From: Candidatus Heimdallarchaeota archaeon B3_Heim
Lineage (GTDB): Archaea; Asgardarchaeota; Heimdallarchaeia; Hodarchaeales; Hodarchaeaceae
Direction: 5' to 3'
DNA length: 32,000 nt
Assembly: GCA_003144275.1 (NCBI GenBank)
Contig: NJBF01000003.1
Coordinates: 1 to 32,000, forward strand
The translations under genes were made by a program, and so were the position numbers. Positions 3,864 to 24,514 of the stretch are shown here, piece after piece. The notes beneath the pieces were generated by a model. The model worked only from the letters and a program-made list of their open reading frames with translations. It ran no database searches and was not told where the DNA came from. How positions within the stretch are numbered: the stretch's first letter is position 1; every line of letters starts with the position of its first letter.

Positions 3864-4640
3864 TCATGCGGTCAGTACGGCCATCAATATCATGAGGCCG
3901 CCAGCTGTATTAAGTAGAATGTGAACTAGCATACTAAATCGCATATCTTTTTTCCACCACACCAAATATCCCAAGGGTAATAGTGCAATGATTCGTATGG
4001 GGTTTTCCCATGGCGAGAAGAAATGATACAAAGAAAAAAGAACCACATTAAGAGCAGGGGCCCACTTATTGGCATAAGCATCCATTCTTGGGAGTAAGTA
4101 TCCACGGAAATATAATTCTTCAACAAATGGTCCTAAAATTCCATTGCATAGTATATAAAGAGCTAAAAGTAAAAAAATCCCTGAATACGCAGCAAAAGCT
4201 TGTAAGTCATCTAGATTCATCGCATTTTGTAAATTATATTCTTCAGGATACCACGAAAATAATGCCTTTACGATCTCTGGATTCACAACTGGAGCGATTA
4301 GGGTAAACATTACGATTGAAAAAATAAGTAATATTGGTACGAATATTAAATAATCCTTCAACGGATTTTTTTCGGTATTCCCAAGCACCCCTTTTAGAGT
4401 ATATCGTCCGTTTAACTTTTTCCCTTCATACAACAGGATTCCAAGTTGCAGAGGTACCAATGTAAAGAGACATGCTAAGTTGAGTCCTAAGATTACTTTT
4501 AGTTCTACATCGATTCCTAAGACTTCAGAAAATACAGGTAGTGAGAAAAAAAATAATCCGATTAATATCGGAATACCAGGAAGTAAATGCAGTAATAGTG
4601 ATTTCAACACAGTGTGTTGTTCAAATTGTTGTTCTGCCAT
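3864..4640 (-). CDS. CPBP family (Abi/Rce1-like) intramembrane glutamic endopeptidase
   Basis: Motifs GPFVEELYFRGYLL, LFSLYH and SMLVHILLN in a multi-TM protein. Confidence 0.92.
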   Translation of the reverse strand: MAEQQFEQHTVLKSLLLHLLPGIPILIGLFFFSLPVFSEVLGIDVELKVILGLNLACLFTLVPLQLGILLYEGKKLNGRYTLKGVLGNTEKNPLKDYLIFVPILLIFSIVMFTLIAPVVNPEIVKALFSWYPEEYNLQNAMNLDDLQAFAAYSGIFLLLALYILCNGILGPFVEELYFRGYLLPRMDAYANKWAPALNVVLFSLYHFFSPWENPIRIIALLPLGYLVWWKKDMRFSMLVHILLNTAGGLMILMAVLTA

Positions 4641-8024: not shown

Positions 8025-8654
8025 ATGAACGTTCAATACCAATCCCTATCAAATGAAGTCAAGTTTATACGAAAGGGTAGTAAAGAACGCGGCTTCTTCT
8101 TTGGGGTAATGGGCTTATTGTTTCAAATTATATTCTTTTGGGGATATTGGAGTTTTCTAGACGAAACTGGTCCATGGTCAATCTTTTGGCTTACCATTAT
8201 TAATAGTGAGTTGTTTCCTTTTACTTTTATTTTGTTTGTTTTTGGGGCAGGCTGTATATTAGTGGCTATTCGTGAATTTGGTTGGCAAGAGTCCTTAATC
8301 ATTAAAACAAATCTTTTTCAGGACATCTCAGGAATACGGAAAGAAATAAAGTTATTTCGGTGGATACGCACCACAGATATTCTTAAAAATCAAATTGTGA
8401 CTCTTCGGTTACATTCGATTCTGCTAGACCAATTTGGGGTTAACAAATCATACAGAATTGAAGTAGATTATCAAGAAAAAGTAACTTCACCAATAGAAAC
8501 CATAATATTATTTAAAGACCATGAAGATAAAACACAATCATCCCTAGGCTTAATAGAGAAAATTCATGATATTTTATCATTATCTAAGGAAATTGAAAAA
8601 ACAGAATCAGTTACTTTTCAATTGGAAGGGAAAAAAAGGGTTGATAATAGCTAG
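8025..8654 (+). CDS. Hypothetical membrane protein (two N-terminal TM helices plus a soluble C-terminal domain)
   Basis: GGAGG at 8013-8017 precedes ATG 8025 (the ORF track starts at 7971). Two hydrophobic segments are followed by a beta-rich soluble region. Confidence 0.7.
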   Translation: MNVQYQSLSNEVKFIRKGSKERGFFFGVMGLLFQIIFFWGYWSFLDETGPWSIFWLTIINSELFPFTFILFVFGAGCILVAIREFGWQESLIIKTNLFQDISGIRKEIKLFRWIRTTDILKNQIVTLRLHSILLDQFGVNKSYRIEVDYQEKVTSPIETIILFKDHEDKTQSSLGLIEKIHDILSLSKEIEKTESVTFQLEGKKRVDNS

Positions 8655-8866
8655 CGAATAAATGGATAGATAGAGACATTTATGGACACATAGGACGATG
8701 AGGAAGTTTAGGACAGAATACCGAAAAACGAAAGAAACGGGGACAGAACATAAATTCTAGGAATGACTGGGGTTTAATTTGTCTCATTGGATTAGAGATA
8801 AAACGCTGGGCTAGTTAACCTATTAACGATAAAATGAGGGAAAGACACCCTGTTTGATTTGGAATG

Positions 8867-8901
8867 TAGGGGTTAATGATTTTATAAAGAAGGAACCCCT
8901 A
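8867..8901 (+). promoter_or_regulatory. TATA box (TTTATAAA, 8881-8888) bracketed by an 8-bp inverted repeat
   Basis: TAGGGGTT (8867-8874) and AACCCCTA (8894-8901) are exact reverse complements with a 19-nt spacer containing TTTATAAA, about 25 nt upstream of the GC-rich element at 8911. Confidence 0.5.
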
Positions 8902-8905
8902 ATAA

Positions 8906-9000
8906 TTCCTGTCGCCGAGAGTTCCGCGGAGACATTAAATGCCTGTGGAGAGGCGGTAAGACCTGTGTACCAACAGGCACGCGTCAAGGAAGCAGGAAGA
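8906..9000 (+). ncRNA. TnpB-associated omegaRNA-like scaffold (IS607/IS200-IS605 right-end remnant), orphan
   Basis: GTCGCCGAGAGTTCCGCGGAGACATTAAATGCCTGTGGAGAGGCGGTAAGACC...GGCACGCGTCAAGGAAGCAGGAA matches the conserved tnpB 3' end pattern as I recall it, and translates VAESSAETLNACGEAVRP. Several stems are visible. No tnpB ORF lies upstream. Confidence 0.65.
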
Positions 9001-9119
9001 ATAGCACCAATATCGACTGGTGATAATTAGCATCATTAACATTAAGATCTTAATTGTCCCTCAATGTCCGATTTGGGTAAGTCTTTCAGAACGGAAAAAG
9101 AGAATAATTCTAAGCTGAC

Positions 9120-10583
9120 TTAGAAATATTCAGAAGGATCACGCATTCCGCGCTTTTTGACATCTTTACGAGAAAGAGTTTTAAACTCATTTCGTAATTC
9201 TGCTGGTAATCTGCTTGGTTTTTTAAACCCTTCAACCGAATCTTTGGCATAAGAGTAAATAAAGGTGCGGAAAGCCACTTTCATGGGCATAGTAACTACA
9301 TTGTAGGGAAGTGTTCCAAGGAAAACGAATATTACCGCAAACACAATTCCATACGTTAATTCTTGAGTTACAGCAAATCCTAGACTGAATCCTATTCCGA
9401 TCCAAAGCAGTGAATTTACAACGGCAAAGATAAATGTCGTCAATCCAAAACCTGTTTCACCAACGAGGACATCGACTAGTGCTCCCCAGGTAGTTTTGGC
9501 CGAATCTTTGATCGAATCTCCTAGGCCTTTCTTATTTTGCACGATACTCACCAAGGTAAAATAGTTCAAAAACATCCAGATTGCACCAATAATGGAGATC
9601 AGGAGACTTGCAATAGCAGCGAATATTAAACCACCAATTGCTGCACCAGCATTTCTACCACCAGTACGTGTTGTTTGACCACGAGCAGCACCTGTAAAAA
9701 TCTGCATGATTATTTTTACCGTCGCCATCGCAAAAGCAAATTTGAGAATGATCGGAAATACTTGACGGACATCTTTCATAGCAGATCCCAAATCAGGATC
9801 TAATCCTCTATACCAATCACTGGCATAAGAGATAACTCCAGCAGATAGGCTGTAATATACACCTAGGTACACGATTAAATAGAAATATTCAAAGATAATA
9901 GCCATTATTAGACCAGGATAACTTAATTCTGTTTCGCCTAAAGCATTAGTAACCTCAAAGAGAGAGTAGATTTTGAGAAAGCCAAAAAGCATGAAAAAAC
10001 CCGTTATTATGGAATATATTCCCAGTAATAAGGGCATAGCTAAGACCGCTTTTTCATCGAGCACAAGTTGAGCCGAAAATTCAACAAATTTTCCACTGCG
10101 TTCAATCACTCGAAACTTCCAGATGACAAATGCTAAAAGTAGAAATCCAAAGCCAGCAATAAACATTCCCATCATCGAAGCGTCTAATTGTTCATCCCCA
10201 GGCATGATTATTCCTCCTCCAATCATAAGAACACCTACTACCATCATTAGTACGGGAAAGAGAACTGAAACAAATATTGTGACCTGTTTAGCAACTTTAC
10301 TCATGATCCATAAAATTACAAATGCTAGAATGACAGTCACAACTAGAAACGTTAAGATAAACGCGATTAAGAGCGGTAGAAAGTCTAAAGAAATAGGGAC
10401 TAAAACTTTCAATGCTTCAGACATTTCAGCTAATATACTAGCATTTTCAGGCTTAACAATAAAATCGTAAAATGCATACGCCCCGAAAACATAGAGGGCA
10501 ACTACAACAATCAAATAAAGCCACGTGGGCGTACTTGAAAAATTAGTTTTAATATTGGGTTTTTTATAATTTGAGACACTCAT
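9120..10583 (-). CDS. Choline transporter-like (SLC44/CTL/Pns1) family membrane protein, putative
   Basis: 487 aa, about 10 TM. Segment order and motifs parallel Pns1/CTL: MSKVAKQV, WKFRVIERSGKFV, SDWY, LGSAMKDV, FLNYFTLVSIVQNKKGLGDSIKDS, FRTFIYSYAKD. Confidence 0.6.
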   Translation of the reverse strand: MSVSNYKKPNIKTNFSSTPTWLYLIVVVALYVFGAYAFYDFIVKPENASILAEMSEALKVLVPISLDFLPLLIAFILTFLVVTVILAFVILWIMSKVAKQVTIFVSVLFPVLMMVVGVLMIGGGIIMPGDEQLDASMMGMFIAGFGFLLLAFVIWKFRVIERSGKFVEFSAQLVLDEKAVLAMPLLLGIYSIITGFFMLFGFLKIYSLFEVTNALGETELSYPGLIMAIIFEYFYLIVYLGVYYSLSAGVISYASDWYRGLDPDLGSAMKDVRQVFPIILKFAFAMATVKIIMQIFTGAARGQTTRTGGRNAGAAIGGLIFAAIASLLISIIGAIWMFLNYFTLVSIVQNKKGLGDSIKDSAKTTWGALVDVLVGETGFGLTTFIFAVVNSLLWIGIGFSLGFAVTQELTYGIVFAVIFVFLGTLPYNVVTMPMKVAFRTFIYSYAKDSVEGFKKPSRLPAELRNEFKTLSRKDVKKRGMRDPSEYF

Positions 10584-11073: not shown

Positions 11074-11278
11074 GATATATCCACTCTTGATTTTTGTGTC
11101 ACACAAGAAAATATCTTTCTTTTGTCTATTTTGACTACAAACCCATTTGTCTCACTAAGGGATTAAAAAATGTTTGTGTGCCTTTTTTTTTCCTGCCCAT
11201 AATAATTAATAAATAGGCGTAAGATACGGAGTTGTGCAAACGGAATTCGTTCACTTTTTTGCTGAAAATGTGAGGCCT

Positions 11279-12559
11279 ATGGATCTTCGTCATAAACTAC
11301 AGATTCCGGATAAGAATCTTAAAGAAATTAATAATTTTTTACTGAATCCTGATAATCCACTCATAAATGATCTTTTACAAGTAATAGACAAATATGGAGG
11401 AGTGGATGAGATAAATAAGAAAGCAGATGAGGCTGGTCAGTTAGATAATCTAATGACTCGTCTTCAAGACAAGCAACCTAAATATGTGAAAGATCTGGAT
11501 TGGTTAATTGACAAGCGTGATAATGATGCTTTTATAAGTGAGTCAGAATATCGTAGACGAGTTTTAGGTGACCGTTTACCAGATATACAATTTAATGACG
11601 AATATGCAGTCACCCTGGAACTCTCGGCGTGTCAATACTTTCCATTTTTCATGGAAGGAGCCAATCAAGCGATTGGAAGGGAAACCCTACTTCCTGGAAG
11701 AATCATTCGTGTGCGTAAAATGAAAGAACAGGAGGATGATGGGGATCTTTTAGCAATGTCAGCTGCGACGAAAATTATTGGCGCTTCTATTGTTGAAACG
11801 TTGGATACGAAAGGTACTGCTCCAGGTCCAGATGGTGCCCCTGTGAATGTACATCTAGGAGGCCCTGCAACTATTACGGGATATTTCGGAGGCGTTGGCC
11901 AACCAAATGATTTTGCTATGAAATGGATTGATGAATATCTCTATTACTATACCACGTACGGAGTCCAGCAAGCTTTAAACATTAATTTAGGGACAATATT
12001 GCTTGGATATTTCATACACAAATTGGGGATCAATAATGAGTTCAAGATTTCTGTTTTTGTGGGTAATGACAACCCGTTTTCCTGTTTCTGGACGTTGTTG
12101 GCAGCTAAACTCTTTGCACGAGATGATGGTTCAAGTCCCTTAATTGGATTTAATCTTTCTAACTCGGTCAATAATCAGACACTAGAATTAAGTGCCTATA
12201 TCAGAAATAATTTCGGTTTTGAAGATGTTGTACGCTTGGAACATCACATAACTGAAACTTGGAAAAGCATTGTACGACAACCTTACGATCGGCGGGAAGA
12301 GTTAGTAGAACTCGCGCCAAAAGTGAAGAACATCAGTGCGAAGCATGAAGGAGGAAATGTTGATGTGGAACCAAACCGGGATTATCCTACTGACATCCTT
12401 GATTATTTCCGTGATAAATCGGAAATCATAGAAGCTGGCCACTGGGATTACATGAAACAAAATTATTTCGATCGTATGGATGCTATCAATTCAACAGCAC
12501 ATGCATTAACGGAAAAAGGTTTGAGTTTTATTGCTGCGCGTCATCTTCACCATCGGTAA
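11279..12559 (+). CDS. Conserved hypothetical protein, probable alpha/beta-barrel enzyme; first gene of the operon
   Basis: ATG 11279 is preceded by GTGAGG (the ORF track uses GTG 11234). Soluble, with alternating strand/helix pattern and Gly/His/Glu-rich motifs (HLGGPATITGYFGGVGQPN, EHHITET, SAKHEGG). Confidence 0.75.
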   Translation: MDLRHKLQIPDKNLKEINNFLLNPDNPLINDLLQVIDKYGGVDEINKKADEAGQLDNLMTRLQDKQPKYVKDLDWLIDKRDNDAFISESEYRRRVLGDRLPDIQFNDEYAVTLELSACQYFPFFMEGANQAIGRETLLPGRIIRVRKMKEQEDDGDLLAMSAATKIIGASIVETLDTKGTAPGPDGAPVNVHLGGPATITGYFGGVGQPNDFAMKWIDEYLYYYTTYGVQQALNINLGTILLGYFIHKLGINNEFKISVFVGNDNPFSCFWTLLAAKLFARDDGSSPLIGFNLSNSVNNQTLELSAYIRNNFGFEDVVRLEHHITETWKSIVRQPYDRREELVELAPKVKNISAKHEGGNVDVEPNRDYPTDILDYFRDKSEIIEAGHWDYMKQNYFDRMDAINSTAHALTEKGLSFIAARHLHHR

Positions 12560-21865: not shown

Positions 21866-23071
21866 ATGTTAGAAGAAGATAATCAGCTCAATAACAGTAC
21901 AGAAGATACTGAGACTGTAATTCCCCTTCCTCAGATAGTAAGTGAGTTCGATAAAGATCGAAGAGATCTAGCTTTATCTTATACCCGTGCTTTAAGGCAC
22001 TTTGGCTTTAAGATGACAATAGTATCACTCTTTGTGTCCCTCACAATTTTACTCTCGAAGGTTACTGTGGAATTTGAACAAGTTATTAGAACTAGCGTTT
22101 CGGACAATCCGTTCGTTGTTGTTGGGTTGTTTTTCTTTATTTCTTTCATTATCATTACAATAGTGGAACTTCCGATTTCCTATTATACATTCTCACGATA
22201 TTCTAGGAAGTATGGACTGGTCAAGTTGTCAAATAGACATTGGTTAAAGCGTCAACTCAAAGGAGATTTCTTTAGTATTCTAATAGGAATTATACTTTTC
22301 GAGGGTTTTTATTGGATTTTGAGAGCATTTCCCGAAACATGGTGGATAATTGGGACTATTGCACTACTCTTATTTTCATTAATAATGGGAGCCTTAGTCC
22401 CAATATTCATCCTCCCTCATTTCTATAAATTTTCATCTTTAGATGAGACACACCCCGAATTAGCAGCTGAAGTACTTCAAATGGTTGAAACATTGGGAGT
22501 AAAAACAACTAAAGTGTTGAATTGGCGTTTAGGAGAAATTGCAACAGTAGGAAATGCGGGTTTAATGGGATTTGGCTCAACACGACGCATTGTTATTGCT
22601 GATACAATGTTGGAGAAATACACCCCAGAAGAAATAAAATGGGTGCTATTGCATGAAATAGGACATTTTAAACATCACGATATGTGGAGGCAGATACTTA
22701 TCAGCATTTGTACGACAATTTTTATGTTTTTTCTCACTCATATCTTTTTTACACCTATCGCTGATTTCTTAGGATATCCAGGAAATATTGCTTCAATAGG
22801 AAGCTTACCTGTTCTTGGAATTATATTTTTCATGATTTCATCAGTTTTATTTAATGTTCCTTCCCTTGCTTATTCAAGAAAACGGGAAGCTGCTGCTGAT
22901 TCGTACGCATCTTCTTATATCAATAAACCTGCCATTGCAACTAGTCTATTCATAAAGATGGCTGATCAAAACCTTGCAGATATTGATCCTCCTTGGTGGG
23001 AGAAATACTTCTTCATGTCACATCCCCCTATAAAGGAAAGAATGGCTGATAGAAAAGACTCCCAACTTTAG
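21866..23071 (+). CDS. M48 family zinc metallopeptidase (Ste24/HtpX-like)
   Basis: N-terminal TM bundle, NAGLMGFGSTRRIVIADTML, HEIGH zinc motif, SRKREAAADSYA, SHPPIKERM. Confidence 0.93.
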   Translation: MLEEDNQLNNSTEDTETVIPLPQIVSEFDKDRRDLALSYTRALRHFGFKMTIVSLFVSLTILLSKVTVEFEQVIRTSVSDNPFVVVGLFFFISFIIITIVELPISYYTFSRYSRKYGLVKLSNRHWLKRQLKGDFFSILIGIILFEGFYWILRAFPETWWIIGTIALLLFSLIMGALVPIFILPHFYKFSSLDETHPELAAEVLQMVETLGVKTTKVLNWRLGEIATVGNAGLMGFGSTRRIVIADTMLEKYTPEEIKWVLLHEIGHFKHHDMWRQILISICTTIFMFFLTHIFFTPIADFLGYPGNIASIGSLPVLGIIFFMISSVLFNVPSLAYSRKREAAADSYASSYINKPAIATSLFIKMADQNLADIDPPWWEKYFFMSHPPIKERMADRKDSQL

Positions 23072-23764: not shown

Positions 23765-24514
23765 TCAACTTAGAATATTCATAATATACAGAATATCGGC
23801 CTCATCTATCATTACAAGAATTCTTCTAAAATAATAGAACAGGATTATTGCCATAATCGGGCCCAAAATTCCCGATATTGGAAGTAGTATGGGCCAGAGG
23901 TCAATCTCAGTAACCGCAATTATTATGAAAAATGAGGCATCAAATAATGATCCAAAGAACATGATGATGGCCAATAGTGTAAATGCAAGAATGAAATTCC
24001 TATCTTTTTCTGCTAATTCGGATTCTTTAAAGACATTATAGCTTCGTAAACAGATTCGAACCAAAAGAATACTCGTAAGAACAACTGGTACACCATAGGC
24101 TACTAACGACAAAGTTCCAAAATACGGGTCTGAATCAGGTAAAGTGAGGAGGAGAAATGAAATACCAACCATGATCCCAAACAGGAATGGGAAGTATTTT
24201 TCCCACAAATTTCGCCTATTGATATAAGTTGTAAGATAATATAGACTTACTTCAAGATATAATGGAGTAAATATAAGACCGAGGAGATGTTTAATCATAA
24301 AATCAACCGTCTCTCTGTCTTCCATAATGACTATCATCCAATTGATAAAGATCAGGTAGGCTAATAGACCGAAACACATAATTGCAAGGTGAAATAAAGA
24401 CTCTTCTCTAAGGTTTAACCATATTCTAAAGAATTTGATACCTCCAACTAGAAAAATAAATGCAAAAACAATTAGAGAAACAAAAGTACTGATTCTTAGG
24501 AGTAAATCAATCAT
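23765..24514 (-). CDS. Hypothetical 7-TM membrane protein
   Basis: Seven hydrophobic segments by eye. GGTGA SD lies 4 nt upstream of the ATG, within the 3' end of the upstream RHH ORF. No Lys in TM7. Confidence 0.7.
   Translation of the reverse strand: MIDLLLRISTFVSLIVFAFIFLVGGIKFFRIWLNLREESLFHLAIMCFGLLAYLIFINWMIVIMEDRETVDFMIKHLLGLIFTPLYLEVSLYYLTTYINRRNLWEKYFPFLFGIMVGISFLLLTLPDSDPYFGTLSLVAYGVPVVLTSILLVRICLRSYNVFKESELAEKDRNFILAFTLLAIIMFFGSLFDASFFIIIAVTEIDLWPILLPISGILGPIMAIILFYYFRRILVMIDEADILYIMNILS

Follow-up and report, generated by a model that had tools for sequence, protein, structure and literature searches.

Proteins of the CTL/SLC44 family are found across the eukaryotes, and links to human disease are known for them. 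Their fold consists of ten transmembrane helices, of which M1-M2 and M3-M4 are peripheral to a pseudo-threefold core formed by M5-M10, and amphipathic helices (AH) connect M4-M5, M6-M7 and M8-M9 (Nel et al., 2026; PMC13160678). The nearest other fold is that of CysZ, and the large extracellular domain of animal and plant CTLs is missing from yeast Pns1 (PMC13160678); because Pns1 is without it as well, the M1-M2 extracellular domain does not define the family. Remote homology between GPDPase_memb and the CTL profile PF04515 (Choline_transpo) was noted earlier for WhyD (PMC9208761). A CTL/PNS1-like Asgard-eukaryote cluster was already listed, without elaboration, in a preprint of October 2026 (bioRxiv 10.64898/2026.10.28.762692), and no paper analyzing Asgard CTL homologs was found in the literature. 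Here, we describe a CTL/SLC44/Pns1-like gene in a 32,000-nucleotide stretch, called the window throughout, from Candidatus Heimdallarchaeota archaeon B3_Heim (assembly GCA_003144275.1, contig NJBF01000003.1, positions 1 to 32,000). The open reading frame (ORF) at 9120-10583 on the minus strand very probably encodes a genuine full-length member of this fold family with the complete eukaryotic-type architecture.

The ORF starts with ATG and encodes 487 aa. An earlier note, written from the sequence alone, had taken it for an apparent archaeal homolog of eukaryotic choline-ethanolamine transporters; its exact minus-strand coordinates were verified, and all of the peptide strings quoted at that time are present in the translation. 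That it is a real gene is borne out by 62 homologs. The host is a Hodarchaeales (Heimdallarchaeia, Asgard) archaeon, the source assembly comprises 3.9 Mb in 103 contigs and is 94% complete, and the genome carries a single copy of the gene. The contig is 134,698 bases long, with ordinary archaeal genes around the CTL-like gene in the window, and the G+C content of the window is about 34-43%.

The protein is predicted to consist of ten transmembrane and three amphipathic helices with both termini in the cytoplasm; lysine and arginine counts in the loops fit this N-in/C-in arrangement and place the amphipathic helices in the cytoplasm. Residues 1-156 (10116..10583, minus strand) form the peripheral helices M1-M4, and their M1-M2 loop of about 25 residues (44-69) contains one short helix in place of the large Cys-rich extracellular domain, which is missing. 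The PF04515 core, residues 142-449 (9237..10160, minus strand), comprises AH1 followed by M5-M10 together with AH2 and AH3, in a pseudo-threefold arrangement of three helix pairs. Residues 450-487 (9123..9236, minus strand) make up a basic cytoplasmic tail with 11 Lys/Arg and low pLDDT (predicted local distance difference test) values, and its Asgard-wide PSRLP consensus is retained in the alignments A1, A2 and A3. The strongest conservation among Asgard proteins lies in or next to the three cytoplasmic amphipathic helices, namely from R162 to K178, in SYASDWYRGLDPD (252-264), and from FLNYFTL to S361. Trp257, Ser361, Gly398, Gly402 and Asp448 are nearly invariant across Asgard proteins, and Phe338 is invariant within the subfamily of the window protein.

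Homology with CTL/SLC44/Pns1, the central claim of the earlier note, is upheld in agreement by Pfam, a reciprocal profile search and the fold, and the profile and structure checks proposed there were carried out. PF04515 matches residues 142-449 of the window protein from end to end (profile positions 3-325 of 326; 25.8 bits, E 7.5e-6), and it is matched by 21 of the 26 aligned relatives in A1 with a best E of 2.5e-15, while DUF6159, GPDPase_memb or DUF7544 is matched by one or two of these relatives only. More distant Asgard relatives match the full PF04515 profile with 39-70 bits in nine of ten proteins scanned. In all nine, DUF6159, GPDPase_memb and DUF7544 span a smaller part of the protein than PF04515 does, and in eight they also score lower; the remaining one scores slightly higher with DUF6159, which is also the sole match of the tenth protein. 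The reciprocal search, which is decisive, was made with a profile of 40 diverse Asgard proteins (A3) against all PDB sequences. Yeast Pns1 was recovered with E 9.8e-23 and 83 bits, its residues 83-513 aligning with profile positions 18-437, and human CTL1 with E 1.5e-9; these were the sole significant sequences, the next having E 0.97. The segments of Pns1 that had been paired with the window protein in the earlier note were each reproduced by HMMER in the alignment of A3 with 9f63_A. There, lskiaaevl corresponds to CRIFPKQFI, frkriklaGkli to MRSRIPLSVAVL, ahdWYr to FGSWYY, flnyFtLpaiViekkglkdsikrS to YFNHYAYSFIALYGKPYLRAAKE, and ykTfLYeYalD to TATFFVALGND. Judged by sequence alignment, this pairing is far above chance. 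NCBIfam gave no match to the window protein, and nothing was found in the window with Rfam.

The structural comparison led to the same family. An AlphaFold2 model built from A1 (mean pLDDT 78.7; predicted template modeling score 0.76) has helices matching the CTL description of ten transmembrane and three amphipathic helices, and a bowl-like fold. In Foldseek searches of the PDB, Pns1 (9f63) and two human CTL1 entries ranked first to third. The Pns1 match has E 1.8e-8, template modeling (TM) scores of 0.58/0.65 and 444 columns; structural alignment to Pns1 spans model residues 13-471, and all further hits outside the CTLs have TM scores below 0.2. Identity in the best structural alignments to Pns1 and CTL1 is 10-14%. 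In the ESM Atlas, the full-length structural matches are eukaryotic PF04515 clusters only (TM 0.75-0.77 over 450-455 residues, residues 3-483), and bacterial clusters of DUF6159, DUF975, DUF7847, YesL and GPDPase_memb align from about residue 154 to 485 only.

The distribution of the family was surveyed at several levels. A word-indexed search of 5.8 billion proteins returned the 62 homologs, with 33-100% identity. Every named one belongs to Asgard archaea (labeled Hodarchaeales, Heimdallarchaeota, 'Promethearchaeota' or, in a few cases, Thor or Hermod), and all are termed hypothetical, many with a precomputed PF04515 match. In a close relative, labeled Heimdallarchaeota, the DNA is about 96% and the CTL-like protein 99% identical; the next relatives are labeled Hodarchaeota. 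PF04515 was matched in 132 of 301 sampled Asgard genomes from many GTDB families, above the cutoff in 89, with a best score of 72.6 bits. Above the cutoff it was found in one of 301 genomes of another archaeal phylum, and in none of 14 control genomes nor in E. coli K-12. Owing to the divergence of this subfamily, PF04515 undercounts the gene in the window's own genus, and genomes of the genus that are negative for PF04515 do carry the CTL-like gene. ESM Atlas clusters with PF04515 are eukaryotic or Asgard. Labeled carriers of the ten-helix protein comprise Hod, Heimdall, Kari, Thor, Loki, Hel, Baldr and Hermod lineages, with the sole exception of a Bathyarchaeia-labeled metagenome-assembled genome (MAG), the single positive of the other phylum, where the gene lies on a 3.8-kb contig. 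Since its protein nests in the Asgard clade beside Baldrarchaeia-like sequences, mis-binning or gene transfer is likely.

In a quick maximum-likelihood tree (LG+G4) of 99 ten-helix proteins and 14 DUF6159 proteins, which was built from prokaryotic sequences, the 99 formed one clade against DUF6159 with a Shimodaira-Hasegawa-like approximate likelihood ratio test (SH-aLRT) value of 100, and the window protein fell within a well-supported Hodarchaeales group of 17. Candidatus Hodarchaeum mangrovi has two CTL-like paralogs, 71% and 40% identical to the window protein. At about 25 bits, the window subfamily is among the Asgard proteins least like the eukaryote-based Pfam model, and Baldrarchaeia and some others reach 60-72 bits; these scores, which are not a phylogeny, do not single out Hodarchaeales as nearest to eukaryotes. 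Because PF04515 is common in Asgard archaea and nearly absent from another archaeal phylum, and because the labeled ten-helix carriers are, with one exception, Asgard, it is reasonable to regard the CTL-like protein as a candidate eukaryotic-signature protein. Separately, some Asgard CTL-like proteins were observed to carry long fused regions, PF04515 being matched in ORFs of 2038-2042 aa, and others have C-terminal extensions of 180-230 aa, one with a beta-propeller-like tail. Such fusions could hint at interaction partners.

Several observations weigh against this reading. The window protein lies 1.1 bits below the curated Pfam cutoff of PF04515 (25.8 vs. 26.9). Phmmer searches of the PDB with single sequences (the window protein and two high-scoring Asgard relatives) gave no CTL match, nor did the narrower profile A1, so that the relationship is visible at the profile level only. 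The pocket tyrosine (CTL1 Tyr495, Pns1 Tyr394) aligns with Phe338, by which the aromatic ring is kept and the hydroxyl lost; this residue is a weak criterion of membership because it is the sole pocket residue common to both eukaryotic structures (PMC13160678). The PF04515 survey was confined to Asgard archaea, one further archaeal phylum, the 14 controls and E. coli K-12. Finally, a profile of M1-M4 alone (A5) finds neither Pns1 nor CTL1 in the PDB, and therefore the equivalence of these four helices rests on structure and collinearity. This last result also fits the view that the window protein is a long member of the DUF6159/GPDPase_memb superfamily which acquired M1-M4 independently, its likeness to CTLs there being convergent and implying no special Asgard-eukaryote tie. 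Over the core, A3 indeed scores DUF6159 proteins at 105-119 bits (profile positions 150-437) and Pns1 at 83 bits, the nearest ESM Atlas cluster is named 'DUF6159 domain-containing', and Baldrarchaeial members are named 'glycerophosphoryl diester phosphodiesterase membrane domain-containing' at NCBI. When 1.84 billion representatives were searched with A1, 408 matches resulted. Among the best 150 of these, a full-length group (about 440-510 aa), a longer group of 660-710 aa from Lokiarchaeia, and many proteins of about 290 aa that align with query residues 152-450 only were recognized; by the labels obtainable, none of the 150 was eukaryotic. The scanned members of the third group are DUF6159 (PF19656) proteins, and three of them that were tested had no match to PF04515. 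The search with the diverse alignment A2 returned almost exclusively relatives of its first sequence (labeled Baldrarchaeia where named), besides one other Asgard-type protein and one DUF6159 protein. The window protein itself is not matched by PF19656, even with E values up to 10 admitted, nor by PF10110, and it carries about 150 N-terminal residues, with four helices, beyond the DUF6159 core. The six-helix core is homologous to the prokaryotic DUF6159, GPDPase_memb, DUF7544 and DUF975 families, and only the ten-helix architecture looks common to Asgard archaea and eukaryotes. Because the core is also homologous to these smaller proteins, the Asgard proteins sit between them and eukaryotic CTLs. 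The earlier note had named as fatal to its proposal a family widespread in bacteria with this sequence nested among them; this applies in part, as core homologs are widespread in prokaryotes, although the Asgard proteins form their own clade in the tree and are not nested. We consider it improbable that the protein is simply a long superfamily member with M1-M4 gained independently. Recent transfer of the gene from a eukaryote, or a contaminating eukaryotic contig, was considered because the family is best known from eukaryotes, and no support for it was found. Identity to Pns1 and CTL1 in the best structural alignments is only 10-14%, the gene lies on a long contig amid ordinary archaeal genes, the synteny of orthologs is kept in related MAGs and in two closed chromosomes, and the proteins form a deep, diverse clade spanning many Asgard families; this origin was rejected on these grounds as extremely unlikely.

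What the protein does is a separate matter from its descent. In oocytes, CTL1, Pns1 and plant CherI showed no choline or ethanolamine uptake, while FLVCR1 and FLVCR2 did, and the closed bowl shape was considered by the authors hard to reconcile with alternating-access transport; a non-transport role for CTLs was suggested (Nel et al., 2026; PMC13160678). The negative uptake results weigh on any transporter reading of the window protein. By analogy with Pns1 and CTL1, the CTL-like protein would form an outward-open bowl in the membrane, with a hydrophilic pocket at the pseudo-symmetry axis whose cytoplasmic side the three amphipathic helices would close. These helices, which bear the most conserved and most charged motifs of the family, might provide gating from the cytoplasmic side. 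On the predicted model, the pocket may bind, and perhaps move, a small polar solute or a lipid-headgroup-like compound, a suggestion we put at somewhat short of an even chance; almost the same likelihood is given to a non-transport role in the homeostasis of the membrane or its lipids. That the protein is an importer of choline or ethanolamine supplying lipid headgroups is suggested by the family name, by older uptake studies of CTL1, CTL2 and CherI (summarized in PMC13160678), and by the WhyD paper, where import of teichoic acid fragments bearing choline is speculatively ascribed to a related membrane domain (PMC9208761). Against these stand the oocyte results and the ill-suited bowl, the replacement by Phe of the sole pocket residue conserved between CTL1 and Pns1, and the window neighborhood, which contains no choline or ethanolamine metabolism gene and gives no metabolic hint. 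We regard such an importer as distinctly improbable, and specificity for choline or ethanolamine is not supported. The choline-ethanolamine transport by which the earlier note named the family is doubtful even for eukaryotic CTLs (PMC13160678), and for this reason the link drawn there to the origin of headgroup uptake is speculative.

One neighboring gene deserves attention beside the CTL-like gene. At 8025..8654 on the plus strand (the start may be 7971), a protein of about 209 aa is encoded whose model (pLDDT 77) shows a PH-like domain interrupted by a transmembrane hairpin. In each of the 15 orthologous loci compared, this gene and the CTL-like gene lie tail to tail, separated by -1 to 51 nt in 13 of them and by 276 or 353 nt in two, and the remaining neighbors vary among these loci. 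By coordinates, the two genes adjoin in eight of eight genomes of the same genus in which both were located, the window's genome included. The neighbor family was found in 15 of 21 genomes of this genus and in none of 62 genomes from the rest of the class. No Pfam model matches this family, and in other loci the more distant CTL-like genes are without it as a neighbor. The same hairpin-in-PH-like layout is seen in EROS/CYBC1 (PDB 8KEI chain D), of which 153 of 164 residues align, and in Ycf4. EROS/CYBC1 and Ycf4 help to assemble or stabilize polytopic membrane complexes. Complex prediction of the neighbor with the CTL-like protein scored 0.44 against 0.01 for the best control; the runs share at least 31% of contacts, and the partner pLDDT is at least 60. 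Of 80 solved complexes, 58 reach the mark applied, as do 2 of 110 mismatched pairs, but scores of 0.60 or less include only 7 of the 80 solved complexes and both of the passing mismatches; the support from this prediction is weak. Lying on the opposite strand, the neighbor is also not co-transcribed with the CTL-like gene. It may tentatively be viewed as a candidate partner or assembly factor that could work with the CTL-like protein in this lineage, a model-based proposal that we consider possible and rather unlikely. We hold with similar reserve the wider scenario in which the ten-helix CTL would have arisen in Asgard archaea by addition of four helices to a DUF6159-like core and been inherited vertically by eukaryotes, with Hodarchaeales acquiring a dedicated EROS/Ycf4-like partner for its assembly or regulation.

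Between the two convergent genes lies an insertion of repeated DNA of 452 bp (8641..9092, no strand assigned), recognized as a blastn gap against the relative with about 96% identical DNA. It replaces the last few codons of the neighbor, and the window's own genome contains about 20 occurrences of pieces of it. On contig C96, about 1.65 kb is enclosed between two halves of it; the insertion is probably a derivative, resembling a miniature inverted-repeat transposable element, of a larger element. A 13-nt inverted repeat at 9102-9131, across the CTL-like stop codon, is a possible terminator hairpin common to the convergent pair. The other neighbors are conserved among the closest relatives only, and none of them gives a functional hint. 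They include an AsnC-type small protein, an aldehyde:ferredoxin oxidoreductase, a radical SAM enzyme and a 441-aa protein, next to which an aminotransferase and a homoserine dehydrogenase are encoded. Further away, the window encodes a Ste24-type CAAX prenyl protease (21866-23071, plus strand), in which the five-helix N-terminal domain PF16491 accompanies Peptidase_M48, and an Rce1-like type II CAAX endopeptidase (3864-4640, minus strand). Both families are tied to eukaryotic prenyl-protein processing and also occur in prokaryotes. Four sizeable ORFs of the window, the one for the 441-aa protein among them, have no Pfam match: 11234-12559, 253-1011 and 1130-2521 on the plus strand and 23765-24514 on the minus strand.

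The earlier note had allowed for prior annotation of such homologs, and this proved correct, as precomputed Pfam matches exist for many of them and the preprint contains its brief phrase. Pfam annotations already reveal the family, to which this gene belongs as an ordinary member; new here are the reciprocal sequence proof, the Asgard-wide distribution, the bridging position toward DUF6159 and the conserved neighbor. A compact archaeal homolog without the extracellular domain offers a simpler subject for structure and biochemistry, and the many diverse orthologs yield deep alignments that point to key residues in the motifs of the three amphipathic helices. The comparison also suggests how evolution may have led from a prokaryotic core of six helices, by way of the ten-helix Asgard protein, to the eukaryotic CTL. 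Most entries on the list of Asgard-derived eukaryotic proteins belong to trafficking, the cytoskeleton or information processing. If vertical descent is true, a lipid- or solute-related integral membrane protein would join this list, and CTL would be a membrane-protein member of the eukaryotic-signature proteins.

Among the systems described, Pns1 (PDB 9F63) and CTL1/SLC44A1 (PDB 7WWB, 9QU3) are the closest to the Asgard protein, which is shorter at 487 aa, shares about 10-14% identity with them, has Phe338 for the pocket Tyr and bears the Asgard-specific basic PSRLP tail; unlike animal CTLs, and like Pns1, it is without the large extracellular domain. The sulfate permease CysZ (PDB 3TX3) resembles the core only, its membrane topology and hexameric assembly differ, and no sequence similarity was detected between CysZ and the Asgard CTL-like protein. 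DUF6159 (PF19656), DUF7544, DUF7847, DUF975 and YesL/DUF624 have a core, six helices plus three amphipathic ones, that is homologous to that of the Asgard protein, with structural TM scores of 0.74-0.82 by the shorter partner; these proteins have about 230-350 aa and, unlike the Asgard protein, are without M1-M4. DUF6159 forms a clade apart from the ten-helix Asgard proteins in the tree, and its relation to the window protein is one at the superfamily level only. GPDPase_memb (PF10110), exemplified by the membrane domain of S. pneumoniae WhyD, is matched together with PF04515 by some Asgard relatives; it is usually fused to a glycerophosphodiester phosphodiesterase domain, a fusion that is missing in the window protein.

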